Shown: positions 3,173 through 55,593, counted from the first letter of the stretch. The stretch: 64,000 nucleotides of DNA from Candidatus Levyibacteriota bacterium (GCA_049519175.1 JBEKQZ010000001.1:17021-81020); one strand, 5' to 3'. Notes: generated from the letters alone by a model not told the origin. Translations and numbers: made by a program.

Positions 3173-3189
3173 AAGCTATTTTAGCAATT

Positions 3190-7886: not shown

Positions 7887-7887
7887 T

Positions 7888-8487: not shown

Positions 8488-9031
8488 TTATTCCTCCTTG
8501 TCCTTTAAGATTAGCTGTAATTCCAACGGTAATAGTCGCTTTGGCGGTATCGTTTTGGATTTTGTCTAGACTGACACTATCAATGGCAGGATAGGCTTTT
8601 AATTTATCGATAAAATCAGAAAGGGCAGTAACCGAATTAACGGTGGCGGCGATTTGCGCTTGAGTTGGAGATAAATCAAGGGTTGTATAGGTAACTCCGC
8701 TTGGTGTCAAAGCAACAATGTCCTTAAATACTTTCAAGTTTTGCGTGGAAGCTTTGGAAACGGAAGAAATTAACGCTAACCGGTCTTGTAAATTTCGGTA
8801 TTTGCTTTCGCTAGCGCTTTGATAGGCAACAATTGCCTGCTCTTGTTTTACTTTTGTGCGTAAATCCTGGAGCTGGTTGTCAAGCGAAAAACGGTATAAA
8901 AAAGCGCCAAGCGCCACCAGTTCGACAAGAATTACTAGGGCCCGGCCAATAGTTAATACCCAGGAAACAATCAAATCTAGCGTTTTATTCTTATTTTCCA
9001 ATAAATTAATAGAGGCAGAAAACTTCGCCAT
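8471..9031 (-). CDS. pilN: Type IV pilus assembly protein PilN
   Basis: 186 aa. N-terminal SINLLE (the conserved PilM-binding INLLP-type motif), a single TM, then a coiled coil. Confidence 0.65.
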   Translation of the reverse strand: MAKFSASINLLENKNKTLDLIVSWVLTIGRALVILVELVALGAFLYRFSLDNQLQDLRTKVKQEQAIVAYQSASESKYRNLQDRLALISSVSKASTQNLKVFKDIVALTPSGVTYTTLDLSPTQAQIAATVNSVTALSDFIDKLKAYPAIDSVSLDKIQNDTAKATITVGITANLKGQGGINASAN

Positions 9032-12851: not shown

Positions 12852-13993
12852 AGAGCGAATAAAAGAACAGCTCCGATTAGTGTGATAACAGCTCCGATAG
12901 TCCCAACTTGCACAAGATTAGTCGGACCGGTTGGCGGAAGTGGACTGACCTGCGCAATTACCGGAGTAGGTGTCGGTGTAGGCGTTGCGGTCGGAGCAGC
13001 CACAACGGTTGTAGTTCCTCCACCGGCGGTAATAGTGACAGAGCAATTAGCAGAACTACTCACGGCATTGTTGGCGTCGGTTAAGGTTGCGGTAGCAGTA
13101 TATGTGCCGGCGGTTGTATAGGAATGAGATTGTAAAACGCTGACGGAATTTGTACCTATTCCACCGGAGCCTGTAATATCTTGAGATTGACTGTCACCAA
13201 AATTAAAAGTAACTTTACTAATAGTGGAATTGCTACTTGAACCGGTAACGGTTAAATTCGTAGCCAAAGGCACTGCCCCGGAAGTGTTGTCGGCTGTCAG
13301 ACTTGAACAGGTTGGGGCGGCGCTAGACTGTGTCGAGGTCGGTGTCGGCGTTAAGGTCTCCGTAGGCGTCAACGTTTCTGTCGGCGTAGTTGTCACATTT
13401 GTGCCGGCAATTATCGTTAAAGCGGCTGGATTCGCGCTGGCCAAAACATTTTCGCTGGACTGGTCACTTGTGCCCAAAGATAAGACCTGTGTATCGTTGC
13501 CAAAGGTAATTTGAGTTGGACCAGAATCTGTCGTCGCAATCGCTTTAAAAGTAATAGTACCAATAGTCGTTGTCTGTTGCACTACTTGAGAGGGATCCCC
13601 GCCGGCAGAAAGAGTAATGGAAATTGTTCCGTTTCCGTAGGTTGGCCCCTGTAAAATATCCGGTAAAACATGCGTTGGGTTGACGGTAGTATTGGTGACG
13701 ATAAGACCCGCTCCGTCCGTTGCCAATTTTGTGCTGTCATACATGATTGTAAATTTGACGTAAGAAACCAGATTAGAGGTGGTAGCGGTAGCCGGATCAA
13801 CTTGAATGTTGAGATTGACATCGTCGCCAACGTGAATTGGCGCTTGCGATGCCGGAAGAATGCTGATCGTCGTCGCTGCCACGGCCGAGCTCTTAGTTTT
13901 TTGTTGTTGTTGGACCAAGAAGACGGTGACCGGAATTGCAACGAGCAAAACTACAATAAAGCCAATTAAAAGAATTTTCTTCATTGAAGACAT
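12848..13993 (-). CDS. Secreted surface protein (cohesin-like domain, Pro/Thr linker, PKD domain) ending in an LPPTG sorting signal plus TM segment
   Basis: Signal anchor MSSMKKILLIGFIVVLLVAIPV. Cohesin-like N-domain. TPTETLTPTETLTPTPTS linker. PKD-like ...HSYTTAGTYTATATLTDANNAV.... C-terminus ...VSPLPPTGPTNLVQVGTIGAVITLIGAVLLFAL. Convergent 4-nt overlap with lepA. Confidence 0.7.
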   Translation of the reverse strand: MSSMKKILLIGFIVVLLVAIPVTVFLVQQQQKTKSSAVAATTISILPASQAPIHVGDDVNLNIQVDPATATTSNLVSYVKFTIMYDSTKLATDGAGLIVTNTTVNPTHVLPDILQGPTYGNGTISITLSAGGDPSQVVQQTTTIGTITFKAIATTDSGPTQITFGNDTQVLSLGTSDQSSENVLASANPAALTIIAGTNVTTTPTETLTPTETLTPTPTSTQSSAAPTCSSLTADNTSGAVPLATNLTVTGSSSNSTISKVTFNFGDSQSQDITGSGGIGTNSVSVLQSHSYTTAGTYTATATLTDANNAVSSSANCSVTITAGGGTTTVVAAPTATPTPTPTPVIAQVSPLPPTGPTNLVQVGTIGAVITLIGAVLLFAL

Positions 13994-16157: not shown

Positions 16158-16988
16158 ATGAAAAAAGTATTTTACATTCTTTCCCCAGTTGTTTTAGTCG
16201 TTTTAATTTTTGCCGCGATTTTACTTTTTCTAGCACAAAACAAAGGTAAAGGTGCTTTACAAGTAACCTCTGTACCGGTGGCCAATGTTTATTTAGACGG
16301 GAAATTATTGGGACAAACTCCGCTTTGTCAGTGTGAATTAAAAGATATGTTAACGGTTGGCGATTACACTTTAAGATTAGTGCCAACTCAAGGAGGATTT
16401 GAACCGTTTGAGCAAAAAATTACCATTGCGCCAAAAGTGCTAACAGTAGTTGACCAAACTTTTGCTGGACAGGGACTAGGTAGCGGCAGCGTTATCAATC
16501 TAACTCCGCTTACGGATGCTAAAGATATGCAGCTTTCAATTGTTTCGTTTCCGGGCAACGCGCAGGTTTTTCTGGATGATAATCCGGTGGGACAAACACC
16601 GCTTCTTTTGCAAAATATTACCGAGTCGGACCATGAATTAAAACTTTCGAAAGTTGGTTATAAAGATAAAATTATCAGAATCAAAACTACGCCCGGTTAT
16701 AAACTGGAAGCCTTAGTTTTTTTAGGCATTAATCCGGACGTTGCCGCCGCCACCGCTTCTGCTGCTTCGGCTTCAGCCAATTTACCGGTGGCCAAAGTTC
16801 TCATCTTACAAACTCCGACGGGTTTTTTAAGAGTGAGAGACCAGCCGTCTTTAGGTGGAAACGAAATAACCCAGGTAAAACCGGGGGAAACTTATCAACT
16901 GCTCGACGAGCGGACGGATTGGTATCAAATAAAACTCACCAATGGGCAAACTGGTTGGATTAGCTCCGAATATGCCCAAAAACAATAG
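16158..16988 (+). CDS. Secreted protein with two PEGA-like repeats and a C-terminal bacterial SH3 (SH3b) domain
   Basis: Signal anchor. VTSVPVANVYLDGKLLGQTP and IVSFPGNAQVFLDDNPVGQTP (PEGA-like). C-terminal ...RVRDQPSLGGNEITQVKPGETYQLLDERTDWYQIKLTNGQTGWISSEY (SH3b-like). Confidence 0.6.
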   Translation: MKKVFYILSPVVLVVLIFAAILLFLAQNKGKGALQVTSVPVANVYLDGKLLGQTPLCQCELKDMLTVGDYTLRLVPTQGGFEPFEQKITIAPKVLTVVDQTFAGQGLGSGSVINLTPLTDAKDMQLSIVSFPGNAQVFLDDNPVGQTPLLLQNITESDHELKLSKVGYKDKIIRIKTTPGYKLEALVFLGINPDVAAATASAASASANLPVAKVLILQTPTGFLRVRDQPSLGGNEITQVKPGETYQLLDERTDWYQIKLTNGQTGWISSEYAQKQ

Positions 16989-16990: not shown

Positions 16991-17938
16991 TTAACTGGGG
17001 TTGATGAAGTAAACTAAAGCAATTACCAAAATAGTCCAAATTACAACAGTGACCAATAATGGTCGGTCGGATAAAAGCACTTTCTCCGGACTTTCACCCT
17101 CATTTTTTTCATAAATATCCTGTAAATAACGCATTAGCCCATAAACGACCGGAATAATAGTTATCATCAACCATTTTCTTTGGAAAAAAGCCGGCAAGAA
17201 ATCCGGCATTAAAACGCCGATTGAAAGTTTAAACCCGGTCGGATTTTCCAAAAAAGTAAACAGCGCATAAGAAATAAAAGTCGAGGTGGCAAAAATAGAA
17301 GCATAAACATCCAACAGCCTTTCGGAATAATGAGATAAAGATTGTCTGGTAGCGGCAAGATCAAAATTTTTGGTGCCCGATAAAAGGGTGAGTTCGCTTC
17401 TTCGTTTACCAATTGCCAAGAAAAGCGAAATCGAAATTGTCGTTAACAAAAGCCAGACCGAAATATGGTAACCGCTGGCAAATTCTCCGGCATAAACCCG
17501 CAAAATATAGCCGGCGGCAATTAAAAGGATGTCAATAACCGCCACACTTTTTAAGAATGAGGAGTACAAAAATTGCATGACAAGATAGACTATTACTAAA
17601 ATGAAAAACGCGGGAGTAATCACTGCTGCCACGGAAAGAGAAACTATTATCAAGAAAGCGGCGATGATGATTGCCAGAAGAACCGGAACGTCCCCGTGAG
17701 CGATTGGTCGAAATCTTTTAAACGGGTGCAGTTTATCTTTTTTCGCATCAAAAATATCATTAATGACATAAGTGGCGCTGGATAATCCGCAAAACACAAA
17801 AAAGCCCAAGATTACTTTGGGCAGAACTGTTGGATCAAAAAGCTCGCCGGTAAAAGTTATGGCGGCAAAGATAGCCAAATTTTTAATCCATTGTCTTGGC
17901 CGCAAGAGCCGAAATATGTTATATGCTAGTTTCATCAT
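16991..17938 (-). CDS. UbiA-family prenyl-phosphate phosphoribosyltransferase (decaprenyl-phosphate 5-phosphoribosyltransferase-like, Rv3806c type)
   Basis: 315 aa, 8-9 TM. LRPRQWIKNLAIFAAITFTGELFDP...YVINDIFDAKKDKLHPFKRFRPIAHGDV (NDxxDxxxD motif plus the downstream RPIAxG block typical of DPPR synthase homologues). Confidence 0.6.
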   Translation of the reverse strand: MMKLAYNIFRLLRPRQWIKNLAIFAAITFTGELFDPTVLPKVILGFFVFCGLSSATYVINDIFDAKKDKLHPFKRFRPIAHGDVPVLLAIIIAAFLIIVSLSVAAVITPAFFILVIVYLVMQFLYSSFLKSVAVIDILLIAAGYILRVYAGEFASGYHISVWLLLTTISISLFLAIGKRRSELTLLSGTKNFDLAATRQSLSHYSERLLDVYASIFATSTFISYALFTFLENPTGFKLSIGVLMPDFLPAFFQRKWLMITIIPVVYGLMRYLQDIYEKNEGESPEKVLLSDRPLLVTVVIWTILVIALVYFINPS

Positions 17939-18995
17939 CGACGCGTTTTAGTAAAAATTGTAAGAAAAGTATAGTACCTCCGGCTAGAATTACCAGCATG
18001 ATAATTGCGAACAACTTTCCTTTGCTAGATAAGACTAGCGATAATGCGCCTAATATAGCAGAAATAGTCCAATAAAACAACGCAATCCGCCTTTGCCCAA
18101 AACCAAGGCTCAACAAGAGATGATGAAGATGTTTTTTGTCATGCCAAAAAGGAGATTTGCCGGATAAAATTCTTCTGGCAATTGTTATAAAACCGTCGGT
18201 CATCGGCACTCCCATTACCAAAATTGCCGTGGCCAATTTTGCGCCGGAAAGAATTGAAGCAACTGCCAAGATTAAATAAATGGCGGTTGCGCCGTAGCCG
18301 GGGAAAATTTTTGCCGGGTAAAAATTGTAGATCAAAAAACCTAAAGACGCGCCGGCAACAATAAAAGACAGCGCCGCCGCTGTGGCACTGGTTTGGTCAA
18401 GATGAGAAAAGCGAAGACTTAAGATGCCGATCACAATCGCCGAAATGGCCACAATTCCCGGCATCTGTCCGTCAACGCCTTTACTCCAATTTAACATATT
18501 CATGACCCAAACAATCCAAAGAACAGCGATTAAATCACCAGCAAAACTAATCACGGCGCCGTTAAGAAAGGGAAGTTGTAAATGACTAAAATTCAAAATC
18601 CCACCTAAAGGATTGGTAATAAAAGGAACGTTGGCGCCCATAAAAACGACGAAAACAGCGCAACAAATATTAATGACAAATCTTAAATATGGGGAAAGGT
18701 CGTATTTATCATCGACAACGCCGATTAGAAGCGAAGCGAAAGCCGCAATTAAAGTCGCAATAATTACTTTTGTCATTGGCAAAAAGAAAATACTGGCGAC
18801 TAACACTCCTATAAAAAGCGGAATTCCTCCGCCCCTCGGGATTATTTTTTCATGAATTATCGCGGGGTGCTGGTGCTTTTTAGGATCGTCAACAATATCC
18901 AGTTTTTTAAGAGCAACAAGACTTAAGGGCGTTGCGATAGCTGTGATTAGAAAAGAGAAAATTAAAGGGAAAATTGTAATATTTAAATTAAACAT
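17919..18995 (-). CDS. GT4-family polyprenyl-phosphate N-acetylhexosamine-1-phosphate transferase (WecA/TagO-like; MraY superfamily)
   Basis: 358 aa, about 10 TM. ...IPRGGGIPLFIGVL..., ...VGVVDDKYDLSPYLRF..., ...NMLNWSKGVDGQMPG.... Lacks the MraY-specific KxGTPTMGG block. Confidence 0.65.
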   Translation of the reverse strand: MFNLNITIFPLIFSFLITAIATPLSLVALKKLDIVDDPKKHQHPAIIHEKIIPRGGGIPLFIGVLVASIFFLPMTKVIIATLIAAFASLLIGVVDDKYDLSPYLRFVINICCAVFVVFMGANVPFITNPLGGILNFSHLQLPFLNGAVISFAGDLIAVLWIVWVMNMLNWSKGVDGQMPGIVAISAIVIGILSLRFSHLDQTSATAAALSFIVAGASLGFLIYNFYPAKIFPGYGATAIYLILAVASILSGAKLATAILVMGVPMTDGFITIARRILSGKSPFWHDKKHLHHLLLSLGFGQRRIALFYWTISAILGALSLVLSSKGKLFAIIMLVILAGGTILFLQFLLKRVDDETSI

Positions 18996-19348
18996 TAACT
19001 AATTTGCAGGATGATTTTAATAATAAAAAGAAAATTCATAAATGCCAAAATAAGCGTCACTGCGGCTACCATTCTGGCGATTAACGGACTTTTATTATAA
19101 ACAATTGAGGTAAAAATAAGGTTAAAAATAAATATCAAACCAAAGATAATGGTCGGAATAAAAATTCCCGGTGTTGCCGTAAGCCGGTCATTGCCCCAGG
19201 GAAGTTGGTTAAAGATGGGAATAAATGGAGGAAGGTTATGGTAACTTAGCAATATATATACAACAGTAAAAAGTGTTAACAGAAAACTAATCAAAAACCC
19301 ACGTAGTGCCAATTTATCGGAAGCGATATTATTAATAAAGTTTTTCAT
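18995..19348 (-). CDS. Small 3-4 TM membrane protein (possible GtrA-like flippase accessory)
   Basis: 117 aa, hydrophobic. Sits between the WecA-like and GT-C genes with 1-nt and 17-nt overlaps. Confidence 0.45.
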   Translation of the reverse strand: MKNFINNIASDKLALRGFLISFLLTLFTVVYILLSYHNLPPFIPIFNQLPWGNDRLTATPGIFIPTIIFGLIFIFNLIFTSIVYNKSPLIARMVAAVTLILAFMNFLFIIKIILQIS

Positions 19349-20816
19349 AAATATTTACTCCCTCAATATTTATTCGCCTGTCGTATCCGGCCAGCGAAAA
19401 GGGAAACTTGGAAACATTTGGCATTACCACAATAAATTTAGGTTTCGCCGTATCCAGTCCTGCCTTCGTGTTGCTATAACCGTCTTTGTAACTGGTGATA
19501 TGATAAGCCACCGTATACTTGCCCGGAGGAAGTTTATTTGTTAGCTTATAAACTTGTGCATTATTGCCCCAAATAAATAGATTATCGGAAGTTTTGGCAG
19601 ACAGATTGATAAAGTTGGCAATTTCGTAATCGCGGGGAGTACTTTGGTCAAAGAAGCTTTCATATGCGGTAACGCTTTGCTTATTCAATATAAACGCCGC
19701 AAAATTTTGATAGTAAAAAATAGTCTTAAAATAGAAGGAAAAACTTAGTAAAACTGCGATAAACGTAGCTAACATTAGCACTCCGGCCAGTTTGGAAAAG
19801 TGTTTGTTTAACATAAAAAGTCCGATGGTCAAACAAAAAGCGGGAAGTAAAACCAAAACATAATGCGTATAAGATCTTTGCGAAAAGTAGGCATTAAAAA
19901 GTGAAAAGGAAAGCCAAAGAGTAACAAAAGCAAAAGGCAGTCCGTAAATTTTCCTTTTCCAAAAAATAAAGAGCGAGAAGCTTCCTAAAAGTATTAATTT
20001 AAAAATTAGAAACCCCTGGGGAATAATAAATTGGTTGCCGTAACTGACATAGCCGATGTTAGAAAATAGAGTGGCGGTTAAAAAATCTTTAAAGGCGTGA
20101 GTAAAAAGAAAATAACAAGCCGTAATTGTAATGGGGATAATAAAGCCAATAGTAAAAGGCGCCAGATTTTTGATTTCATTTACTAAATTCTCAACTTTAA
20201 AAATATCTAAGAACCTTTTGGAATAATTGGCAAAGAATAAAAATCCGGCAAAAGCGGCAAAATCAAAAACTGCGACGATTTTAAACAGAAAAGACAACCC
20301 CAAGACTATGCCGGCTGATAACAGTATCAAGTATCTAGTATTTAGTATTTTGGTGTCTAGAGATCGCAGGACTAAGTATCCGGCGGAAATATTCAAAAGC
20401 AACATAAAATTTTCCGCGTTGGCGATATTGCCTTCGATTAAAGGCAGACCGAATAAAATAGCAAAGAGAAGTGTTATTACGAAACTAACCTTAGGATTGG
20501 CAAATAATCTTTTGCAAAGATAATAAAAGACGATAACCGATAATAGTCCGAAGATTAAAGACAAAAGCCGAATCATAAACTGGTCTGAATTAACGAAGCT
20601 ATAGAGAAGATAAAGTAGCGGTGGTTTGTTATCAAAAATGTCGCGGTATAAAAGCCGACCGGCTCTAATTGCGATTCCCAAGGTTTGATAGACCCCTTCG
20701 TCTCCATACCAGTCGGGCTCAAAAAGCGAGGGAAGCCGCAGGATAAAGAAAACTAAAGAAGCAGCGATTAAAAACCAGATGTCCCGGCTCTTTTCCAATT
20801 TTGCCAATAATTTCAT
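19332..20816 (-). CDS. GT-C fold membrane glycosyltransferase (ArnT/PMT-like, family 39 type)
   Basis: 494 aa, multi-TM. YGDEGVY acidic motif after TM1 (the DE motif of GT-C polyprenyl-P-sugar-dependent transferases). Confidence 0.6.
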   Translation of the reverse strand: MKLLAKLEKSRDIWFLIAASLVFFILRLPSLFEPDWYGDEGVYQTLGIAIRAGRLLYRDIFDNKPPLLYLLYSFVNSDQFMIRLLSLIFGLLSVIVFYYLCKRLFANPKVSFVITLLFAILFGLPLIEGNIANAENFMLLLNISAGYLVLRSLDTKILNTRYLILLSAGIVLGLSFLFKIVAVFDFAAFAGFLFFANYSKRFLDIFKVENLVNEIKNLAPFTIGFIIPITITACYFLFTHAFKDFLTATLFSNIGYVSYGNQFIIPQGFLIFKLILLGSFSLFIFWKRKIYGLPFAFVTLWLSFSLFNAYFSQRSYTHYVLVLLPAFCLTIGLFMLNKHFSKLAGVLMLATFIAVLLSFSFYFKTIFYYQNFAAFILNKQSVTAYESFFDQSTPRDYEIANFINLSAKTSDNLFIWGNNAQVYKLTNKLPPGKYTVAYHITSYKDGYSNTKAGLDTAKPKFIVVMPNVSKFPFSLAGYDRRINIEGVNIYEKLY

Positions 20817-20818
20817 AA

Positions 20819-22315
20819 TTACAGTTTTTCGGTAACCTTATATTCCAAACGTTTACCCAGCATTAATTGCGTGTGTGAAATCAGCGCCGGTAGCGCGGAG
20901 AGAAAAAAGCCAACGAGCGGAAGAAGCAAAAATTCCAACGGAAATAATAGTTGCCTTGTTTTTGAATGTTTCATAATATGTTTTGGTCTTTGCCGGTAGT
21001 CAATAATAAACATCATCAGTATTGCGACCAGGCAAAGCGTTAAGATAAAACCCGCCAATCTTGGTAAGTTGTAGCCAAGGGTGGTTCGGGAGAATACCGG
21101 ATTGACGAAAGGCATAATATTAGCTGCTATCGTTATTATGAACCAGTTAACCGGCCAAAGGAAGTGGTCGAGCAAAACATTAAAAAGCATCATAGTTTTT
21201 CTGACAAAAGGAACTCCCGGAACGGTAAACCACCATTTTATAAATAGAGCATCGTCGGAGGCACCCCAGCTCCAGCGTCTTTCCTGTTGATATTTATTTT
21301 TCAGTGATTTGATGTAAGAAGAAGAAAGAGGCGCATCCATTGAAGTTTTCAAAAATATCGGTTCCATATCCACTTGCCCTTGTTTTTGAAAAAAGGCTTT
21401 AAAGAAAATCCGGTAATCTTCCGGAATAACGTCGGTATCCCAGTAACCAATTTCACGCAACAGCTTAAATGATAAAGAATATGTGGAATTGGAAACCAAC
21501 CTGTCTTTTTGCACCAAAAGGCCGGTTCGCCAAAGACTGCCGAAAAAGGCTACAATCCTAACCGCCGCCGGCACATTCCAGAAATTATTATAATTTACAT
21601 TGGCGGATTGCCAAAATTTGCTATACTTTTTCTCATCCTTTAAGAAACTGGCAGTAAGATAGGCAAAATATTGAGGGTCAAAGATGGAATCGGCATCAAC
21701 AGATGAAATCGTGGCGTAATCCAGGTCGATAATGCCGGCTTTTACTAATTTTTTATAAGCCAGTTTTCCGCCAAACGCTTCATTGGAAGATTTACCTTTG
21801 ACTTCGCCTTCAATGTCCGGATGGAAACTCGCCATCACAATCCCGAATTTCTTTCCAAACTCGGCCATTAATTTTTCCGCCCTATCTTTGGCTTCCATTT
21901 CTCTTTTTTCCATTGCCAGAACAACGTAAATTCTTTTAGTGGGGAAAGTTTGATTACTTAAGCTTTGAAGGGTTTGTCTTAATTTTTCTAAGCTTTCCTT
22001 GTAGTTGGGTATAACGACGACGTGGGATATTTTTTCAAAATTTTCCAGCGGCTTTGTTAATTTTAGCCAATCTTGTTTTTCCGCTTGCTTAATTTTTCGG
22101 GAAGCAATGAAGGCAGTAATGGCCAACGAAAAAGATTTATAGAACCAATAAACATCAAAAAATAAAATGAAATAGGCGACGGCCAGAGGAATTAAGAAAG
22201 AACCCCAAACCGGAAATAAAATTAAAAACCAAGAGACAAAACCGGGTAATATTTCCAGCGCCCGTCTGGTTTTTACGGGATAACGGGTGAAAACGGTGTT
22301 AAAAAAACTTGTCAT
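20819..22315 (-). CDS. Membrane-embedded family 2 glycosyltransferase (processive GT2-like)
   Basis: 498 aa. N-terminal TMs, HVVVIPNYKESLEKL GT-A domain, SSVDADSIFD (DxD), and C-terminal TM bundle. Confidence 0.65.
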   Translation of the reverse strand: MTSFFNTVFTRYPVKTRRALEILPGFVSWFLILFPVWGSFLIPLAVAYFILFFDVYWFYKSFSLAITAFIASRKIKQAEKQDWLKLTKPLENFEKISHVVVIPNYKESLEKLRQTLQSLSNQTFPTKRIYVVLAMEKREMEAKDRAEKLMAEFGKKFGIVMASFHPDIEGEVKGKSSNEAFGGKLAYKKLVKAGIIDLDYATISSVDADSIFDPQYFAYLTASFLKDEKKYSKFWQSANVNYNNFWNVPAAVRIVAFFGSLWRTGLLVQKDRLVSNSTYSLSFKLLREIGYWDTDVIPEDYRIFFKAFFQKQGQVDMEPIFLKTSMDAPLSSSYIKSLKNKYQQERRWSWGASDDALFIKWWFTVPGVPFVRKTMMLFNVLLDHFLWPVNWFIITIAANIMPFVNPVFSRTTLGYNLPRLAGFILTLCLVAILMMFIIDYRQRPKHIMKHSKTRQLLFPLEFLLLPLVGFFLSALPALISHTQLMLGKRLEYKVTEKL

Positions 22316-46972: not shown

Positions 46973-47614
46973 ATGATTAAATCCGGAGAGAAATTACAAC
47001 AGGCAAGGATTGAAAAAGGTTTAAACTTGGAAGATGTTGCCAAGGCAACCAAAATTAAAAGTCAATTTTTGTCTTATATTGAAGAGGGTAATTATCAAAA
47101 ACTTCCCTCGGCTTCCTATGCTTATGGTTTTGTCCGCAATTATGCCCGTTATCTTGGGCTTTCCGATCAGGAAATCTTGGCGCTTTTTAGACGTGAATTT
47201 GATGAAGATAAGGCTTATCGCGTGTTGCCTAAAGGATTGGAAGAACGCACCGAATTTCCAATTGTCAGATTTAAAGCAAAACAGACAATTTTTCTCTGTG
47301 CGATAGCCTTTATTCTATTGGCCGGATATCTATTATTTCAGTACCGCGATGCGTTTTTAAATCCGCCGTTAACCATCTCTTCTCCTAAAAACATGAGTAG
47401 TATTACTTCATCTCAAGTCACCGTTTCCGGACAGACCGATCCTAACGCTACGGTTTATGTCGAAAAAAATGCGGTTTCGGTCGATGAAAATGGTAATTTC
47501 CAAAAAGTAATTACGGTTTTTCCGGGAATAACGACGATAACAGTCAGAGTGGTTAACCGTTTTTCTAAAGAAACAGATAAAAAGATCCAAATTGATGTAA
47601 AGACAGGGACTTGA
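46973..47614 (+). CDS. rodZ: RodZ-like cytoskeleton protein (HTH_XRE N-domain, TM, C-terminal beta domain)
   Basis: ...GEKLQQARIEKGLNLEDVAKATKIKSQFLSYIEEGNYQKLPSASYAYGFVRNYARYLGL..., then a TM (IFLCAIAFILLAGYLLF). Confidence 0.75.
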   Translation: MIKSGEKLQQARIEKGLNLEDVAKATKIKSQFLSYIEEGNYQKLPSASYAYGFVRNYARYLGLSDQEILALFRREFDEDKAYRVLPKGLEERTEFPIVRFKAKQTIFLCAIAFILLAGYLLFQYRDAFLNPPLTISSPKNMSSITSSQVTVSGQTDPNATVYVEKNAVSVDENGNFQKVITVFPGITTITVRVVNRFSKETDKKIQIDVKTGT

Positions 47615-47650
47615 CATCAGGGCTCAATTAAGATAGTTTTATCTTACGAC

Positions 47651-47926
47651 ATGATAGATCCTGCCCAAACAGCTTTGTTTATCGTTATCATTATCCTAAC
47701 GGTTCTGTTAGTGATATTAGGCGTTCAAGTTTTTTTCATTCTCCGCGAGCTTCGAAAGACCATTGGCAAAGTCAATAAAGTTTTGGATGATACTAGTTTA
47801 ATTACCGAAAGCGTTTCCAAGCCAATAGCATCTTTATCAACTTTAACAATGGGGTTAAAAACTGGTGCCACTATTGCCCGAATTCTTAATGGCGGTAAGC
47901 ATCATAAGGAGAAAAAGGATGAATGA
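47651..47926 (+). CDS. DUF948-like small membrane protein
   Basis: N-terminal TM followed by a coiled-coil segment. 91 aa. Confidence 0.5.
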   Translation: MIDPAQTALFIVIIILTVLLVILGVQVFFILRELRKTIGKVNKVLDDTSLITESVSKPIASLSTLTMGLKTGATIARILNGGKHHKEKKDE

Positions 47927-48227
47927 TAATAAATTTACCACAGGTTTATTGTTGGGATTGATTTTAGGCGGAGGCGCCGTTTTTTTATTGGGAACCAGGA
48001 CCGGCAAAAACCTGTTGAAAATTGTTTCCGAACGGGGCATGGATGGATTGGTGGAGCTTTTGGAAGAATATAATTTTGATGATTTAGAAGAGGAAGAAAT
48101 GGCAGATGAAGGTGAAATTCCGGCGGAAGAAGTTCAACCGGAGTCAAAAGAAGAAACATCGAGTCATCAATCCGAGAAAAAGGATTCGTCCCCAAAAAAG
48201 CACTTCTTCAAAAGAATCAGGAAATAA
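47919..48227 (+). CDS. YtxH-like small membrane protein with acidic tail
   Basis: MNDNKFTTGLLLGLILGGGAVFLLGTRTGKNLLK... matches the YtxH N-terminal pattern. The start was moved to the ATG at 47919 (AAGGA SD upstream, 8-nt overlap with the previous gene) instead of the ORF-track start at 47865. Confidence 0.5.
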   Translation: MNDNKFTTGLLLGLILGGGAVFLLGTRTGKNLLKIVSERGMDGLVELLEEYNFDDLEEEEMADEGEIPAEEVQPESKEETSSHQSEKKDSSPKKHFFKRIRK

Positions 48228-48228
48228 T

Positions 48229-49188
48229 TTATTGGCCGTATTTGGCAATGTTGGCTTCGTGCCCCTGAAGAGTAGTGGCAAAATGTAAGTGCCCTTGTTT
48301 GTCGGCAAAGAAGTACAGATAATCGGTTTTGGCCGGATTCAAAGCAGCTTCAATTGCGGACAAGCCCGGATTACTAATCGGTCCTGGCGGAAGGCCGGGA
48401 TTTTTCCTGGTATTGTACGGAGAGTCAATCTCTAGATCGGCAGCGGTTAAATCTTTTTTCCACCAGGTCTTGGTATCCGGCTGATAACCCAAAGCATACA
48501 TGACGGTTGGATCGGAGCCCAAAGCCATTCCAATGTTTAGCCTGTTGATAAACACCGAAGCGACTAATGGCCGGTCCTGGGCAAACATTGCTTCTCTTTC
48601 GATAATAGAAGCAAGGATAATTGTTTGAGCATCAGTTAAGTTAGTTGTCTTCTCGTTTCTAACGCTATCGTATTTGGTTTGGAAATTATTTTTCATCAGC
48701 GTTATGACCGTATTCACATCGGCGTCCCGCGGGATTAAATAAGTATCGGGGAATAGGTATCCCTCGTTGGCGTCTAATGCGGCGCGCCAGGATTCATTAT
48801 AACTGGGAAGTTTCTCTTTGAATAGGTCGGCAATTTCGTCTGCCCGGTATCCTTCCGGAATCGTTACCCAAATATCTAATGTTCCATGGGTCAGGTCACT
48901 GGCTACCTCACTCATCGTCATTGCCGGGTTTAGGCGGAAATCCCCCGCCTGGATTTGCTTATCCAAGCCGTTAATTCTGGCGTATAAGAAGAAAACAATC
49001 GGGTCGCGGATTAATCCGGCGGTTTTTAAATTATTGGCAATTTCCCTGACACCCTCACTTTTATCAATCACAAATATTTTGGGAGCTTTGTCGCTACTAT
49101 TGGCTGCCAATAGCCCATTTTGCCACCAGAGGAAAATTCCGACTGCCAGAACTACTAAAATCGTAATTAAAGCAACTAACCTTTTCAT
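48229..49188 (-). CDS. mltG: Endolytic murein transglycosylase MltG (YceG family)
   Basis: N-terminal TM. ...DYLYFFADKQGHLHFATTLQGHEANIAKY C-terminal signature. Confidence 0.85.
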   Translation of the reverse strand: MKRLVALITILVVLAVGIFLWWQNGLLAANSSDKAPKIFVIDKSEGVREIANNLKTAGLIRDPIVFFLYARINGLDKQIQAGDFRLNPAMTMSEVASDLTHGTLDIWVTIPEGYRADEIADLFKEKLPSYNESWRAALDANEGYLFPDTYLIPRDADVNTVITLMKNNFQTKYDSVRNEKTTNLTDAQTIILASIIEREAMFAQDRPLVASVFINRLNIGMALGSDPTVMYALGYQPDTKTWWKKDLTAADLEIDSPYNTRKNPGLPPGPISNPGLSAIEAALNPAKTDYLYFFADKQGHLHFATTLQGHEANIAKYGQ

Positions 49189-50462
49189 GTGTATTTAACA
49201 ATTGGGAAGTTCACTAGTGAGTCTTTCCCTTCCTTAAGATTATACACATTTTCGCTAAAAAGTGTATAGATGGTTTCATTTTTCAAAACCTTATCGCCGA
49301 TTTTTTTGTTTAAGTAAATTCCGGCGCCTTTCTGTTTTGGGGCGCCTAAAATTTTAGCAATGGCGGTGATGTTTTTACAATTTAATTCCTTAACAACTCC
49401 GCTTTTATCGGCTTTTTCTTCAAAGGCATTTTTACCCAGGCGTAATTTATCACTTTTAACATTTGGATTTCCTCCCTGTGCTTCAACAATTTGTTTAAAT
49501 TTTTCCAGAGCTCTGCCTGACTGTAAAATATCCAAAGCCCAGCCGTAAGTATTGCCGTAAATTTCTTTTATTGATTTGCGCAGCTCTTGAGGACTATCTT
49601 CAAGACATAGCTCCAGAAGGTTACTGGCTAAATTAATCGCTCTGACTTCCAAATCCAAAGGCCTATCTTTAGTTTGCTCTAACACTTTTAATGATTCCCT
49701 AATCTCCAGAACCGGTCCAATGCCGCGTCCTGCCGGCTCTTCGGTGTGGTGAATTAGCACTTTGAGCCTAATTTTAAATTTCTTGGCCAAAAAGTTAAAT
49801 TTTGCTTGGATTCGTTGAGCATCTTTTAAGCTGTGTGCCTTAACAGTTCTGCCATAAGGGAGATCAATCACAACATGGTTACTGCCGAAAGCAATTTTTT
49901 TGGCCATAATTGACACCAGAATTTTATCGAAGCTTTCAAACACTAACGGTTTTTCAACTTGGATAATAAGGTCGTCGGCCGGGGCAATTTTAAAACTGCC
50001 TCCCCAAACAATGCAACCGTTAGTCTTGTTAACAACGTCGTAAATCTGTTTTTCGGTTAGCTCCACCGGAGCTAAAACTTCCATGTCATCGGCAGTTCCG
50101 TCGGGAGTGGTAATTGCGCGAGAAGAACTTTTAGGAATTTTAAAACCTGCGGCGGCCACAATAGCAACAACTATGGGTGTCGTTCTGGTTCCCGGGACTC
50201 CGCCGATAGAATGCTTGTCGGCAATAATTCCTTTAAATTGTAATTTGTGTCCGGTTTCAACCATGGCTTTGGTTAAGTAGTAAAGTTCTTGATTACTAAA
50301 GCCTTCGGAGTACCCGGAAGCGGCAAAATAAGTAGTTAAAATCTCTCCGAGTCTTTGCCGAGAGATTTGGTCCATGATGGCATAGATTTCTTTGTAAGTT
50401 AAATTTTTGCCTAAAATCTTTTTACGGATAGCATTAACTGCTTGTTCTTTCTCGTCTATCAT
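49185..50462 (-). CDS. deoA: Thymidine/AMP phosphorylase family enzyme (glycosyl transferase family 3 fold)
   Basis: ...DKHSIGGVPGTRTTPIVVAIVAAAG...GGSFKIAPADDLI.... 425 aa. Confidence 0.8.
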   Translation of the reverse strand: MIDEKEQAVNAIRKKILGKNLTYKEIYAIMDQISRQRLGEILTTYFAASGYSEGFSNQELYYLTKAMVETGHKLQFKGIIADKHSIGGVPGTRTTPIVVAIVAAAGFKIPKSSSRAITTPDGTADDMEVLAPVELTEKQIYDVVNKTNGCIVWGGSFKIAPADDLIIQVEKPLVFESFDKILVSIMAKKIAFGSNHVVIDLPYGRTVKAHSLKDAQRIQAKFNFLAKKFKIRLKVLIHHTEEPAGRGIGPVLEIRESLKVLEQTKDRPLDLEVRAINLASNLLELCLEDSPQELRKSIKEIYGNTYGWALDILQSGRALEKFKQIVEAQGGNPNVKSDKLRLGKNAFEEKADKSGVVKELNCKNITAIAKILGAPKQKGAGIYLNKKIGDKVLKNETIYTLFSENVYNLKEGKDSLVNFPIVKYT

Positions 50463-50589: not shown

Positions 50590-51321
50590 TCATATTTTTT
50601 CCACTTTCGTTTTAACCACCAATCTTTTCCAAGTTGTGCCGGGCGGTGTGCAAGTGACCAGAGTTAAATAACTATCGTCAAAGCTTTGTTCCAAAATAGA
50701 AGTGTTCTCCGGGTCAACGACGGTAATATTTTGCACTTGATATTTGTAAGTAGATTTACCGACATTAACGATAATTTCATCGCCGGGGGATAACTCATAC
50801 AGATAAGTAAAAACGGTTTTGTAACTTTTGGCATCGTAGAGTTGAGGTAGGGTGGAATGTCCAAAAACTACCGCATTACCTTTCTCGCCGGGAATAGCGG
50901 TCCCACCATAATTTACCAAATGACTGGCTAAATCATTATCAACCGTTGATACGACAGCATTGACTATGTTTAATTTAGGGATTGATAAGGAGTAAGTTGT
51001 TACTTGCTGTTTTGTATTCGATTGCCTTTTAAAATTAGGAAACCAATTATCAGCATTATTATAGTCAACGCCGCTAAGCGTGTTTGAGGCTTCGGCCAAA
51101 AGAGTTTGAAAAGTTGAGCTATTTACAATAGTGCTTTGCGGGATCGGGGAGCTAATATTTTGACTGGCAAATACCGGCGCAAAATAGATTTGCCAAGAAA
51201 TTAACGGTAGAAAAACGTAAGCCGTGATTACTAGTCCTATCGCAAAAATTCCTAACCCGATTAAGCGGGTGAATTTCTTCTTTCTATTTCCTTGGGCTTT
51301 TTTGTAATAAACTTTTGGCAT
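50590..51321 (-). CDS. Sortase-family transpeptidase
   Basis: N-terminal TM (LIGLGIFAIGLVITAYVFLPL), catalytic His in ...NAVVFGHSTLP..., catalytic Cys in ...YLTLVTCTPPGT..., and a downstream Arg (WKRLVV). 1-nt overlap with the upstream gene. Confidence 0.75.
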   Translation of the reverse strand: MPKVYYKKAQGNRKKKFTRLIGLGIFAIGLVITAYVFLPLISWQIYFAPVFASQNISSPIPQSTIVNSSTFQTLLAEASNTLSGVDYNNADNWFPNFKRQSNTKQQVTTYSLSIPKLNIVNAVVSTVDNDLASHLVNYGGTAIPGEKGNAVVFGHSTLPQLYDAKSYKTVFTYLYELSPGDEIIVNVGKSTYKYQVQNITVVDPENTSILEQSFDDSYLTLVTCTPPGTTWKRLVVKTKVEKI

Positions 51322-53672
51322 TATTTGGCAGTGATTTGGATTGTGATATTTTTAGGATTACCCGGCAGGTTGGTGGATAAGAAAGGAAGGCTTGGTTTTA
51401 GCTCAATGCCGACGTTTTCAACTTGAGAAAGACTGGAGAGTATGCTTCTGGCTTTGGTTAGCGAAGTCCCGGCAATTTGTTTGGCTATTTGGTTATTATC
51501 GAATTTGGGCAAAAGATTAGCACTAATTGCTAAATCTGCGGAGACGTCCCCGTTGTCGGCAACCGTAATATTTTTGGCGTTAACCGAAAGATTGTTTTTG
51601 CTAAGTTGAGTATTGCCACTGCTAAAAAGCGAATTGGCAACGGATAACATATCCGAAGCGTTGTAAGTTAAGCTTTGAAAATCGACCGTACCTTTTAGCG
51701 TTACACTGCTGGCCTGGTCCCCGGCATTTTTATCGAAGCTTTTATTGCTAATTGTTTCGCTGGTAAAACCGGACAATAAGACATTATCTCCCGTAACTTT
51801 GCTTTGCAGGTCGTTTTTAGCCTTGCTTTCAAGCTGTTTAGGCAATCCGTCTAAAAGTTTTTGAATGTCGTCTTTAGAGACAACCGTGACGGTTTTTTTG
51901 GCTCCGCCGGAAAACGCATTATCGTTTTTGGCGGCCACATCCCCAAGTGAATAATCGCCGACGCTGAATTTAGTTCCGGACGGTAAATTATAGTTTTGGC
52001 CGATATCGGAAGCCGTTATATTCACCGTGGCAGTCCCGGGGGTTTGATTAGAAGCATCTCCGGACGCCGAAGCCACTGAGGTGTCGCTGTCCAGAGTAAA
52101 ACTTAAATTATCTGGAGAAGTAATAGTTGTTCCGGAGGGCAAATCGATTGGGTTACTGGTGGCGTTAAAAATGGTTACGGAACCCTTAGCGGCAGTGCCG
52201 ATATCTTTTGTGCCACTGGAATTAACAGACATACTGCCGTCTTCGGAAACGGAAACCGGTTGCGAAGCAATAACACTGCTGGCAATATCCGTGGCTTTAT
52301 TTGAAGAAAAAGTAACCGAGGTAGTTTTCTGGTCGGATTTAGGATTAACCAAAAGCGTTACGGTTGCTTGGGCGTTGAAAATTAAGAAGAATGCTCCCAG
52401 CAAAAGTAGAATCACAATTGCGGCAGGAATAATTAGCACGGCATTTCGTTTTGATTTTCCGGCCGGATTGAATTTTTTGAAGAAGTTTATTATTGATACT
52501 CTAGCTTTAGCAGCTGTTAGGAGAGCAGTTCGTACCAATCCTGTTTTTGTTTCTTCTTCGATTTTTTCTTCTTCGGGAATTTCATTGAATTCCTCTTTAA
52601 TTACTTCGTCCGGCACTTTTTTCATTACCGGTTCGGGCTCCGGTTTTGCGCTTTTAGCGATATCGACTCCTTCGGCAAAGCCGAAATAAGCCAGTGAGTC
52701 GTCGGGGCTAATATAATCAGGTTTGTTGGTTGCGTTGACTGTTGCTCCTTCACTAGTTCCTACCGATTCGCCCGTTGCTTTTTCCCTTTCCTTGGCTTCC
52801 GACGCTGCAACCTTAGCGTTTATTTCCTCAAATTCTTTCGGTGTTTGGACCGGTTCGAAATTTGAAAATTCCTCAGGAGAGATCTTTTTTGGTTGTTCAT
52901 CGAAATCCACATTTTGCGAATCATAGATTAGTTGGGCGCCCATTTGAGTAGCGGCGCCTAAAAGCATGGCCTTAATTGATGCATCTTTGGGTAGGGTGGT
53001 AATTTGCGGCAGGTGCAGAAACGGTAAGCTTTTGCTCCATGGATGCCCGATAAACTCTTGGGTTATTTCTTCGTCATCAGCTCCGTAGATAACCACCCGG
53101 GATGGCATTGCTTCAGTAGCCTGAAAATGTTTTAGAAGCGTGTCAACCGTAAATGGAGCAGATTCGTGGATTTCCGAAGATTTGGTCTCGATAATTTTAC
53201 CGCTTTTAACCAAGGAAACGGTAATAAATTTTGTTCCCATATCCACCAAAACTGCGGTAACTGGTGCGCCTTCCTCCTGCTGTAAGAGATTAATAACGCT
53301 TTCGCTGGAAACCAAAAAACCAATCGGCTCAAGCGCCAATTCGTCGCTAGCTTTTTTTAGTTTTTCCAAATACTCCTTTTTAATTTTATTGTCTTCAATC
53401 CAATTTTCTTTTAATCCGAAGATGGTTTTGTGGCTTTCGACATTATCCGGTAGGACATTTTCCGCCTGGCTAATCGATTTATCCAAAACCTCCAGAAATT
53501 GTTCGGTCGTAGCGTCTTCAATCGTATTGTCAAAATCTTCTTCCCCATGTCCCAGGTATTTGATGACATTGCCCGATTTGGCAAATAAGATTGAGGTGGC
53601 TCGTTCATTCCTTAGCACCAGAGCCATATAGTATTCCGGTTTAACCTTACTGTCTAAAAAAGGCAACTTCAT
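51321..53672 (-). CDS. Bitopic fusion protein: N-terminal PilM/FtsA-like actin-fold domain, one TM, and a large Ser/Thr-rich extracellular domain
   Basis: ...YYMALVLRNERATSILFAKSG... and ...AVLVDMGTKFITVSLVKSGKI... (actin-like phosphate-1/-2-type motifs). TM AVLIIPAAIVILLLLGAFFLIF at about aa 400. C-terminal about 350 aa has low complexity with beta-rich repeats and no LPXTG. Confidence 0.5.
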   Translation of the reverse strand: MKLPFLDSKVKPEYYMALVLRNERATSILFAKSGNVIKYLGHGEEDFDNTIEDATTEQFLEVLDKSISQAENVLPDNVESHKTIFGLKENWIEDNKIKKEYLEKLKKASDELALEPIGFLVSSESVINLLQQEEGAPVTAVLVDMGTKFITVSLVKSGKIIETKSSEIHESAPFTVDTLLKHFQATEAMPSRVVIYGADDEEITQEFIGHPWSKSLPFLHLPQITTLPKDASIKAMLLGAATQMGAQLIYDSQNVDFDEQPKKISPEEFSNFEPVQTPKEFEEINAKVAASEAKEREKATGESVGTSEGATVNATNKPDYISPDDSLAYFGFAEGVDIAKSAKPEPEPVMKKVPDEVIKEEFNEIPEEEKIEEETKTGLVRTALLTAAKARVSIINFFKKFNPAGKSKRNAVLIIPAAIVILLLLGAFFLIFNAQATVTLLVNPKSDQKTTSVTFSSNKATDIASSVIASQPVSVSEDGSMSVNSSGTKDIGTAAKGSVTIFNATSNPIDLPSGTTITSPDNLSFTLDSDTSVASASGDASNQTPGTATVNITASDIGQNYNLPSGTKFSVGDYSLGDVAAKNDNAFSGGAKKTVTVVSKDDIQKLLDGLPKQLESKAKNDLQSKVTGDNVLLSGFTSETISNKSFDKNAGDQASSVTLKGTVDFQSLTYNASDMLSVANSLFSSGNTQLSKNNLSVNAKNITVADNGDVSADLAISANLLPKFDNNQIAKQIAGTSLTKARSILSSLSQVENVGIELKPSLPFLSTNLPGNPKNITIQITAK

Positions 53673-53674: not shown

Positions 53675-55447
53675 TTAGCCGACAACGGCATAGATTCGGC
53701 GCTGTCCGTGGCCGATATTCTCCTGCTTTATTATTTTAAACTTTTTAATTTCACCTGTAAAATTTACATGAGGTCCTCCGCAGAATTCTTTGGAGTAGTC
53801 GCCGACAAAATAAACCTTAACATTGTCAGCGTATTTTTCGTCAAACAAGCCGATTGCCCCCAGTTGTTTGGCTTTGGCAAGCGGTAGAATTTCGAAATGT
53901 ACGGGTAAATTCTCTTTAATTTTTTCGTTGACGGTGGCCTCAATTTGAGTAATTTCGTTATCCTCTAGCTTCCGATCGAAGTTGAAATCAAATCTTACCC
54001 GTTCACTTGTTATGTTCGAACCTGTTTGATGGAGTTGTTCTCCAAACATGTCTCGTAAGGCTTTATGTAAAAGGTGAGTAGCGGTATGTCCCATGATAGT
54101 TTTTTCGGCATGGTCGGCTAAACCGCCTTTGAATTTTTGTTCGGCGCCGGCTCTGGATAATTTTTGGTGTTCTTCCATCTTTTTGGCAAATTCCTGCTCG
54201 TTAAAAACATAACCTAATCCTCTGATTTGAGTTGGAGAAAGACCATGTGTTGTATACATTCTAAAGGCATCATCGGCAGAAATTTCTTTAGTATTTTTCG
54301 TTCCTCCTGTAGTTTTTAGTAGCTTTTCCGCTTCACTAATTGTTCTTTGGTAGTTTTGTAGTTCTTCTAAAATGACATTTTTTATTTCCTCATATTTTTC
54401 TTTTAAATCTTCGTCAGTCGTTGAGTATTGTTCAACAATTTTTTCTATTACTGTTGTAATATTCTCGCCGTCCAAGATGCGGAAATTATCGAGTGCACGC
54501 CTAATTAGTCTTCGTAAAATATACCCTTGCTCGGTCTTCGCTGGTTTGATGCTGGCAGCAGCAATAAACGTCGATGCTACTAGATGGTCGGCGATAATCT
54601 GCATTTCCTTTTTGTTTTGGTCATAAGTCTTACCACTTTCGTCCTCAATAGTTTTTATTATCGAGGCAAAAAGGGAAGTCTGGAAAACGTCGGACTTATT
54701 TTCAACCGCCGCCAATAATCTCTCGACGCCCCCGCCATAATCAACATTTTTTTGCGGTAGTTCTTCGAAACTTTGCTCCGTTTTTCGATATTGCATAAAA
54801 ACAGAATTCGCAATTTCCATAAACTTACCGCATTTGCAGTCAATCGGATTGTCCTTGCATTCGGGTTGATGTTCGACTTCGTCAAAACGATAATAAACTT
54901 CGGTGTCAGGTCCGCCGATTTCGCCGACTGGCATATTTTTAGGAAGACCACTACGTGACCACCAATCTGTATCGTCAAAAGTTATTTTTTCTTTCGGATT
55001 AAATCCGTCTTTTTTCAGGATTTCCGCCCAAATTCCATATGCTTCTTCGTCTTTTTGAATATTTCCGTAGCCGTTAAAAACAGTAATAAACAGTTTCTCC
55101 TTGGGGAGTCCGAACTCTTTTATCAAAAGCTCCCATAGCCAGGGAATTTCTTCGTTTTTAAAATAATCTCCAAGAGACCAATTGCCAAGCATTCGGAAAA
55201 ATGTCTCGTGACGGTTGTCTCCGACTTCCTCGATATCAACCGCCCGGAAACAATTCTGAACATCAACCAATCTTTTTCCGGCAGGATGTTGTTCGCCCAT
55301 TAGATAGGAGACTAAAGGTTGCATCCCCGCGGATGTGAAAAGCGTAGTTGGGTCGTTTTCCGGAATCAGCGGAGAATTAGCAATGCGTTTGTGCCCGCGT
55401 TTTTCAAAAAAACTAATGTAGATATCAATAATTTCTCTAGCTGTCAT
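53675..55447 (-). CDS. alaS: Alanine--tRNA ligase (short form)
   Basis: ...FFEKRGHKRIANSPLIPENDPTTLFTSAGMQPL... class II core and the editing-domain HxxxH/CGG.HV motifs. 590 aa. Confidence 0.9.
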   Translation of the reverse strand: MTAREIIDIYISFFEKRGHKRIANSPLIPENDPTTLFTSAGMQPLVSYLMGEQHPAGKRLVDVQNCFRAVDIEEVGDNRHETFFRMLGNWSLGDYFKNEEIPWLWELLIKEFGLPKEKLFITVFNGYGNIQKDEEAYGIWAEILKKDGFNPKEKITFDDTDWWSRSGLPKNMPVGEIGGPDTEVYYRFDEVEHQPECKDNPIDCKCGKFMEIANSVFMQYRKTEQSFEELPQKNVDYGGGVERLLAAVENKSDVFQTSLFASIIKTIEDESGKTYDQNKKEMQIIADHLVASTFIAAASIKPAKTEQGYILRRLIRRALDNFRILDGENITTVIEKIVEQYSTTDEDLKEKYEEIKNVILEELQNYQRTISEAEKLLKTTGGTKNTKEISADDAFRMYTTHGLSPTQIRGLGYVFNEQEFAKKMEEHQKLSRAGAEQKFKGGLADHAEKTIMGHTATHLLHKALRDMFGEQLHQTGSNITSERVRFDFNFDRKLEDNEITQIEATVNEKIKENLPVHFEILPLAKAKQLGAIGLFDEKYADNVKVYFVGDYSKEFCGGPHVNFTGEIKKFKIIKQENIGHGQRRIYAVVG

Positions 55448-55530: not shown

Positions 55531-55593
55531 GCAAAATTATAAACTTTCATTTCAGAAAGTCAATCCTCGAAAAGTTTCTAGAACATTTACCCC

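Follow-up and report, generated by a model that had tools for sequence, protein, structure and literature searches.

We describe a conserved pair of genes in Candidatus Levyibacteriota, one encoding a sortase and the other a bitopic partner protein whose cytoplasmic half is predicted to adopt an actin-like fold and whose outer half is predicted to match phage Baseplate J proteins. The pair was studied in a 64,000-nucleotide (nt) stretch of one genome (GCA_049519175.1 JBEKQZ010000001.1:17021-81020), referred to here as the window, with positions counted from its first letter. The two genes occur side by side at every locus we surveyed, and the window also encodes two proteins ending in an LPPTG-type sorting signal with no basic tail. 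With moderate confidence, we propose that the pair is a two-gene module for anchoring surface proteins in the Microgenomates (Levybacteria and Roizmanbacteria), composed of a scaffold-like partner and a housekeeping sortase.

A conserved sortase-partner gene pair

Both genes are on the minus strand, the sortase gene (243 amino acids, aa) at 51321 down to 50590 (50590-51321) and the partner gene (783 aa) at 51321-53672. They meet in a TAATG junction (51319-51323, minus strand), where the sequence ...GCCAAATAATGCCAAAA places the final A of the partner's TAA stop as the first base of the sortase ATG; the two open reading frames (ORFs) and the start-in-stop overlap are thus as the initial annotation described them. 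Database records exist for exactly these proteins in a Candidatus Levyibacteriota metagenome-assembled genome, under the titles "sortase" (MGA2911076.1) and "baseplate J/gp47 family protein" (MGA2911077.1). Overlaps of 1 nt are frequent in this compact genome, and a single one is by itself unremarkable.

The pairing is more than chance, as it recurs across independent loci. In a search from the partner side, the gene directly behind the partner, in the same orientation, was the sortase in 69/69 GTDB species-representative loci, these being the genomes with DNA downstream of the partner gene. In a search from the sortase side, the partner was immediately upstream in 64/64 metagenome loci with enough upstream DNA, a scan that returned only close Levybacteria orthologues and so adds no phylogenetic breadth. 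The pair was also intact in all six loci looked up singly. Spacing between the two genes has a median of -1 nt, is at most 10 nt in 61 of the 69 species loci, and is mostly -8, -4, -1, or 0. The co-occurrence check suggested in the initial annotation therefore bears out the pairing, Roizmanbacteria included. The arrangement had been called undescribed, and we likewise found no description in the literature of the pairing, of a sortase with an actin-fold or baseplate-J protein, or of this partner.

The surroundings of the pair differ between lineages. Levybacteria share the block alaS-partner-sortase-nucleoside phosphorylase-mltG, with alaS upstream of the pair in nearly all of their loci and absent in Roizmanbacteria. 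The most divergent partners (25-30% identity) come from Roizmanbacteria and other Microgenomates, and the Roizmanbacteria loci read vanW/solute-binding protein-partner-sortase-class A penicillin-binding protein (PBP), with the pair intact in every locus inspected. Because the pair persists although the Roizmanbacteria flanks are wholly different, we regard it as the conserved unit. Its neighbors are repeatedly peptidoglycan enzymes (MltG, class A PBP, FemAB, and VanW); one locus (L064, 4289-5925) has two femAB genes beside the pair, and class A PBP or FemAB-family genes lie directly beside it in several relatives (L064, and downstream of the sortase in L068 and L072-L075). FemAB-family proteins are builders of peptidoglycan cross-bridges, a hint that the chemistry of the anchoring acceptor adjoins the pair in some lineages. 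Genes for LPXTG-type substrates adjoin the pair in none of 155 loci, which fits a housekeeping rather than a pilus-specific sortase. As a separate observation, the GTDB titles of many Levybacteria-type loci (L007, L008, L017, L018, L026, L027, L029, L039, and others) name other taxa, such as "uncultured Gammaproteobacteria", "Methylomirabilota", "Lysobacterales", "Limnocylindrales", and "Sulfotelmatobacter", and this submitted taxonomy looks wrong or generic.

The sortase and its sorting signal

Membership of the sortase family is clear from Pfam PF04203 (89.3 bits, cut-off 26.6, E 2e-25) and TIGR01076 (77.3 bits, cut-off 39.35). Run against the class-specific NCBIfam models, as the initial annotation had advised, the protein stayed far under every cut-off: class C 77.9 bits (160), class E 64.7 (160), class D 63 (165), class F 33.7 (166), and GN 33.9 (158). 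Judged by these models, it fits none of the curated classes and stays unclassified. Among relatives of solved structure, class C, D, and E sortases come nearest (E 7e-12 and weaker).

The canonical His, Cys, and Arg are H155 (in FGHS; nt 50857-50859), C224 (in TLVTC; nt 50650-50652), and R233 (nt 50623-50625), all on the minus strand. At least 99% of 70 orthologues keep each of them, and none varies in a 14-sequence cross-clade alignment, in agreement with the residues named initially. The orthologue alignments also reveal motifs of the clade's own, namely A-x-x-W-[F/Y]-P, FGHSxLPQ, and TCxPPGT, the first of which sits in a linker of about 70 aa between the membrane anchor and the catalytic domain (minus strand). 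The anchor spans residues 18-42 (nt 51196-51270, minus strand) and follows a basic N-terminal segment, an order from which the catalytic domain is predicted to lie outside the membrane.

Two candidate substrates are encoded in the window, both on the minus strand. Substrate 1 (381 aa, 12848-13993) carries PKD/Ig-like domains and a Thr/Pro-rich stalk in addition to a signal peptide and ends in LPPTGPTNLVQVGTIGAVITLIGAVLLFAL, a signal made of LPPTG and 25 residues finishing in LLFAL-COOH (nt 12851-12940, minus strand). Substrate 2 (474 aa, 6124-7548) combines an N-terminal anchor or signal with FN3/Big_13 Ig-like domains and a Thr/Pro-rich stalk and ends in LPPTGNPSIITVGIVGVIVTLTGGLLFLLSHGGISAL, in which LPPTG is followed by 32 residues (nt 6127-6237, minus strand). 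Neither protein has a Lys or Arg after the motif.

The absence of a tail extends well beyond this genome. Across 120 homologues of the 381-aa protein, the signal reads, by consensus, L(93)-[P82/A21/E11]-P(97)-T(107)-G(120)-P(115), always with 25 or 26 residues after the Gly, and the C-terminal L[L/F][F/L]AL is conserved. In 0/120 is there a Lys/Arg or Asp/Glu among the last 18 residues; any Lys in these signals sits between the motif and the hydrophobic segment, and motif variants such as NEQTG occur. The initial description of tail-less ends in the two window proteins, and of a lineage-specific variant of the signal, thus holds for the lineage at large. In characterized systems, the hydrophobic segment and the charged tail together retain the precursor for sortase action (PMC5569036), so that the missing tail is a real, lineage-wide departure. 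NCBIfam LPXTG-anchor models matched neither LPPTG protein at E up to 1, and we found no literature on tail-less signals in these bacteria.

The cytoplasmic actin-fold domain of the partner

The partner has more than 750 full-length homologues whose N-termini align, and the conserved MKLP... beginning shows the start of the 783-aa form to be correct and the 768-aa call of one database to be too short. Residues 1-255 (52908-53672, minus strand) make up a minimal domain of subdomains IA and IIA only. The AlphaFold2 model of these residues is confident (pLDDT 84, pTM 0.83), and their secondary-structure order, beta-beta-beta-alpha-beta-alpha-beta-alpha occurring twice, corresponds to the two RNase-H-like halves of the actin/ASKHA fold. 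Foldseek with the full partner model placed PilM first among PDB matches (E 2e-8). The best structural matches of the domain are FtsA and PilM, of which only about 215 of 333-370 residues align, and the highest target TM-scores come from EutJ and BT_3980, minimal proteins of matching size. Structure prediction, proposed at the outset as a check on the actin-like domain, accordingly yields an actin fold, and on this modeling we assign the partner an actin-like (ASKHA) core. There is no 1C (SHS2) or 2B subdomain in the model, since IA and IIA account for all secondary-structure elements of the 255 residues.

The initial annotation called this half of the protein PilM/FtsA-like and credited it with actin-fold ATPase motifs. 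The first label stands for the fold and fails for sequence similarity and for the 1C subdomain. No FtsA or PilM family was hit in Pfam (E <=0.1) or NCBIfam, a search of the domain family's profile against PDB sequences (E up to 10) and Pfam gave nothing, and the single trace was an FtsA PF14450 match at E 0.19 in one family member. The second label does not survive a multi-clade alignment read together with predicted secondary structure, as opposed to a structural superposition. Phosphate-1 DxG is replaced by LRNE/LKEQEG, phosphate-2 D-x-G is found in Levybacteria only and is lost in other clades, and the adenosine GG motif is absent. The residues invariant in the family are instead D64, E71, K106, L112, L114, G118, P190, W212, F218, and P222. 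Going by these motifs, the domain is probably a pseudo-ATPase scaffold. Among 1.84 billion representative proteins it forms 1210 clusters at 50% identity, and the best-scoring 150 of these, which were inspected, are almost all proteins of 700-820 aa with the domain at residues 1-255, so that it is essentially confined to this architecture.

The linker, membrane helix, and ectodomain of the partner

A disordered, acidic cytoplasmic linker follows at residues 256-410 (52443-52907, minus strand), with pLDDT below 50 over residues 267-410 in the AlphaFold2 model and an amphipathic or basic stretch just ahead of the membrane helix. Within it, residues 326-338 (about nt 52659-52697, minus strand) carry S-x-E-[F/Y]-F-G-F-x-E-x-x-D-[I/V], of which [F/M]-G-F-x-x-x-x-D-[I/V] is kept in all clades examined (Levybacteria, Roizmanbacteria, and others) while the rest of the linker is unconserved. 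This [F/M]GF element looks like a linear interaction motif and is a candidate short linear motif. The single transmembrane helix, AVLIIPAAIVILLLLGAFFLIF, occupies residues 411-433 (52374-52442, minus strand) with a hydropathy maximum of 3.08, and the AlphaFold2 helix at residues 410-432 coincides with it. As the basic stretch KKFNPAGKSKRN precedes the helix, an N-in/C-out topology is predicted.

Residues 434-783 (51324-52373, minus strand) form the extracytoplasmic, Baseplate J-like module. It is modeled with high confidence (pLDDT about 90) and consists of a beta-rich region that includes a "GlxA/baseplate J barrel", a long helix at residues 600-625, and two alpha/beta subdomains. It passes the threshold of Pfam Baseplate_J PF04865 (31.8 bits, cut-off 21.1), and GlxA barrel PF21110 was matched in homologues. 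In Foldseek, 340-365 of its columns align to whole baseplate J proteins of 346-404 aa with probability 1.0, among them those of phage XM1, diffocin TRI-2, and phi812, as well as dozens of predicted phage proteins (BFVD entries). The TM-scores of these matches are low (0.2) because the relative orientations of the domains differ from those in baseplate J proteins. The models indicate that the ectodomain is equivalent to a complete phage Baseplate J protein. It had been described as a Ser/Thr-rich ectodomain, which is accurate for composition (Ser plus Thr about 25%) and misleading if taken as low complexity, since the module is confidently folded. We also considered a sortase site in the partner itself and rejected it, as the conserved C-terminal ...LP-x-N-P-x-N-I... 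belongs to a folded beta-strand region and has no hydrophobic tail after it.

Proposed function and alternative explanations

In the anchoring module that we propose, the sortase would act as a membrane-anchored cysteine transpeptidase, most likely cleaving the T-G bond of surface proteins whose genes are dispersed. The signal it would use comprises L-[P/A/E]-P-T-G-P, a spacer of about six residues, and an 18-residue hydrophobic end without a basic tail, and the cleaved proteins would then be transferred to the cell wall. The partner, presumably translated as a unit with the sortase, may be a bitopic scaffold that holds or positions the enzyme on the outer face of the membrane and, perhaps by way of the [F/M]GF motif, connects it with a cytoplasmic partner where peptidoglycan is made. 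The oligomeric wedges and rings of phage tails are built from Baseplate J proteins, and actin-fold domains, PilM and the cytoplasmic domain of GspL among them, serve as scaffolds close to the membrane that form rings or filaments. As both are scaffold-type domains, their fusion in a bitopic protein is plausible as a sortase platform. What the analysis establishes is the identity and fold of the parts, the predicted topology, the strict gene pairing, and the atypical signal. We infer the physical interaction of the two proteins, the assignment of substrates, and the localization, and functional coupling is deduced from gene order.

Several points weigh against this proposal. The interaction of sortase and partner is read indirectly, from gene order, and it is motif logic that links the sortase to the LPPTG proteins. 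Our view of this genome covers 64 kb, and further sortases or processing enzymes may be encoded elsewhere. In Levybacteria, the whole block from alaS to mltG is conserved, so that plain synteny could explain part of the pairing, and gene overlaps are common in this genome. A mirror-tree comparison over 38 loci gave r of about 0.5 for partner and sortase, below the 0.8 for partner and phosphorylase; it detects no pair-specific co-evolution and lends no support either way, leaving gene order and coupling to carry the functional link. The AlphaFold2 models, finally, were built on shallow alignments of 25-36 sequences.

The same synteny could mean that the partner is a scaffold of the elongasome or divisome, a RodZ- or FtsA-like link between cytoskeleton and wall that works independently of the sortase and adjoins it through a shared envelope neighborhood. 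The flanking MltG, class A PBP, FemAB, and VanW genes, the RodZ-like gene and ftsK nearby, an N-domain fold closest to FtsA, and the lack of pair-specific signal in a block that is syntenic throughout Levybacteria all agree with this idea. We nonetheless consider it unlikely, because Levybacteria and Roizmanbacteria have nothing of the block in common but the pair, which usually overlaps, and because every sortase of this clade was paired in the 64 loci of the sortase-side search; such a scaffold would moreover be compatible with our proposal, as it could couple the sortase to wall synthesis. Strict one-to-one gene coupling would also be expected if the ectodomain were itself the acceptor or a fiber base, with LPPTG proteins joined to its Lys residues or assembled on it rather than on lipid II. 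Baseplate J proteins are fiber attachment platforms in phage tails, and four ectodomain lysines (K489, K582, K612, and K740) are invariant. These lysines, however, lie in motifs shared with phage homologues, such as AKND...F-x-GG, and so look structural, no pilin-type motif was recognized, and MurJ of the lipid II machinery in this genome and FemAB-type genes in relatives point to a conventional acceptor, which leaves the acceptor role distinctly improbable.

A different possibility starts from the LPPTG ends, which might be permanent membrane anchors or substrates of another enzyme rather than sortase signals. The canonical LPXTG-anchor model did not match them, the canonical P3 Pro is less conserved than the Pro at P2, NEQTG-type variants exist, and substrate retention normally requires a charged tail (PMC5569036). 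We find this improbable all the same, given that the T-G core varies little or not at all (T 107/120, G 120/120) and that signal peptides, Ig/PKD domains, and Thr/Pro stalks otherwise match sortase substrates. As for another processing enzyme, exosortase, archaeosortase, and rhombosortase were sought and none is encoded in the 64-kb window, whereas a sortase is almost universal in the Microgenomates (PMC6744442). Very unlikely, in our judgment, is that the partner is the missing PilM-equivalent of a type IV pilus machine whose LPPTG-bearing proteins the sortase processes. What invites the thought is the top PDB match to PilM, the presence in the window of pilN (with an N-terminal INLLE, a PilM-binding-type motif) and pilO with no adjacent pilM, and the position of one LPPTG protein as the last gene of the pilN-pilO operon. 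The N-domain nevertheless has neither the PilM 1C subdomain nor a PilM/FtsA Pfam match beyond the FtsA trace, the partner gene is never beside pilus genes in about 140 loci, and genomes of the candidate phyla radiation (CPR) usually carry a conventional PilM (PMC6744442), possibly outside the window here.

Returning to the scaffold-sortase module, one extension of it would make the unusual partner and the missing tail parts of a single mechanism, though we think it unlikely. An oligomeric partner platform in the membrane might replace retention by the basic tail, capturing fixed-length ...TGP-x6-hydrophobic-FAL ends, presenting them to the co-translated sortase, and coupling anchoring to the cytoplasmic side where wall synthesis takes place. 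If so, the pair would amount to a sortase "holoenzyme" with a domesticated phage-baseplate module at its core.

Significance

Sortases are textbook stand-alone enzymes, and an obligatory, lineage-wide sortase partner would, if real, be a new way of organizing the anchoring of surface proteins. To our knowledge, an actin-fold pseudo-ATPase, a transmembrane link, and a baseplate-J module have not been seen together, and we know of no baseplate-J module outside phage tails and contractile injection systems. The Microgenomates, members of the CPR, are uncultivated, ultrasmall, and probably attached to hosts, and their surface proteins are likely attachment tools. Knowledge of the module and its signal (L-x-P-T-G-P, fixed length, no basic tail) would allow the surface proteome to be predicted from Microgenomates genomes, in which standard LPXTG models miss these tail-less proteins. 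The signal also raises the question of why a basic tail is dispensable here. The anatomy and conservation of the pair are solid; the mechanism is our proposal.

Other genes in the window

Directly upstream of the partner is alaS (53675-55447, minus strand), whose stop lies 2 nt before the partner start and which in Levybacteria is probably co-transcribed with the pair, a matter of context only. The encoded AlaRS is short (590 aa), with the catalytic and second additional (SAD) domains and nothing beyond the latter. A promoter scan gave one plausible promoter only, the best promoter-like site of the region, TTGACT-16-TATAAT, upstream of alaS (55536-55563, minus strand; a consensus match only), and a terminator scan returned terminator-like sites that were no commoner than in shuffled sequence. 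On the other side of the pair, between the sortase and mltG, Levybacteria have a thymidine/AMP phosphorylase-family gene (49185-50462, minus strand) with Pfam scores that are low for the family; it is missing from the most divergent loci and from Roizmanbacteria.

A RodZ-like protein is encoded on the plus strand at 46973-48227, with an HTH_25 domain, a membrane helix, an NCBIfam RodZ match (E 7e-17), and a weak C-terminal PamR match (E 0.003). The gene is followed by two small membrane proteins (91 and 120 aa, from overlapping ORF calls), and the trio accompanies mltG in most Levybacteria loci, changing side or orientation in divergent ones. The PamR match led us to consider the Pam pilus of CPR bacteria, which we set aside as irrelevant because the published Pam pilus is assembled by donor-strand exchange and involves no sortase.

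The operon at 6124-9031 (minus strand) encodes PilN (8471-9031), PilO (7888-8487), a 113-aa membrane protein (7545-7886), and the 474-aa Ig-like LPPTG protein. Stops and starts within it overlap. The N-terminus of PilN, MAKFSASINLLE, contains the PilM-binding-type motif, and no pilM adjoins the gene, which has 390 nt upstream and then a divergent murJ. A sortase-type substrate within an operon for a type IV pilus platform is unusual. Genes for envelope and glycosylation functions are dense at 136-6127 and 16991-22315, where we found an LCP (LytR_cpsA_psr) ligase, a DUF2298 membrane protein, two PMT_2-type protein-mannosyltransferase-like genes, and GT4 (MraY-like), UbiA prenyltransferase, and GT2 genes. 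O-glycosylation could plausibly target the Thr/Pro-rich stalks in the LPPTG proteins. A 276-aa protein (16158-16988, plus strand) with two PEGA domains and a C-terminal bacterial SH3 domain is a probable surface or wall-binding protein without an LPXTG signal.

Comparison with known systems

With class C, D, and E sortases, the enzyme described here shares the fold family, the His-Cys-Arg triad, the N-terminal membrane anchor, and an LPXTG-type motif with (here predicted) cleavage at T-G. Like the class A and E housekeeping sortases, it is not clustered with its substrates. It differs from the curated classes in its scores (34-78 bits against cut-offs of 140-166), its clade-own motifs, its obligatory upstream partner gene, and substrate signals without a basic tail. 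The signal itself keeps the LPPTG motif, the hydrophobic segment, and the preceding Thr/Pro-rich stalk of canonical Gram-positive sorting signals, but it has no Lys/Arg after the hydrophobic segment (0/120), a fixed 25-26 residues after the Gly, and a conserved L[L/F][F/L]AL end, and its Pro residues at P2 and P2' show higher conservation than the canonical one at P3. Its form, a cleavage site and a spacer ahead of a tail-less hydrophobic end, resembles that of the glycosylphosphatidylinositol (GPI)-attachment signal of eukaryotes.

The partner departs from FtsA and PilM in having an N-domain of only about 255 aa with subdomains IA and IIA, degenerate nucleotide motifs, and no sequence similarity. 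Whereas FtsA uses an amphipathic helix and PilM binds PilN, this domain sits on a true transmembrane helix fused to a large ectodomain. The layout is closest to that of GspL and of PilM-PilN, scaffolds that likewise join an ATP-independent, actin-like domain in the cytoplasm through one transmembrane helix to an outside domain and couple the two sides of a membrane. The protein described here differs from them in carrying a Baseplate J module, not a ferredoxin-like domain, on the outside and in having a sortase, not a secretion ATPase, as its genomic partner. The partner has no GspL (T2SSL), GspL_C, PilN, or PilO family match in Pfam or NCBIfam, and none of the loci with inspected genes is flanked by a GspE/PilB-type ATPase.

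The ectodomain scores above the Pfam cut-off for Baseplate J and aligns structurally over its full length with this group, which includes P2 gpJ, Mu gp47, T4 gp6, diffocin TRI-2, and TssF of the type VI secretion system. In contrast to those systems, the module here stands behind a membrane helix and an actin-fold domain, is encoded in a housekeeping operon, and is vertically conserved in a bacterial lineage. Tail, sheath, spike, and TssG/gpI-like genes are absent near the pair, where the neighbors are alaS, sortase, phosphorylase, and mltG or solute-binding protein, sortase, and PBP. Overall, the system would work like a sortase anchoring pathway, with a partner that resembles GspL and PilM-PilN in its layout and Baseplate J proteins in its outside domain and is a member of neither system.

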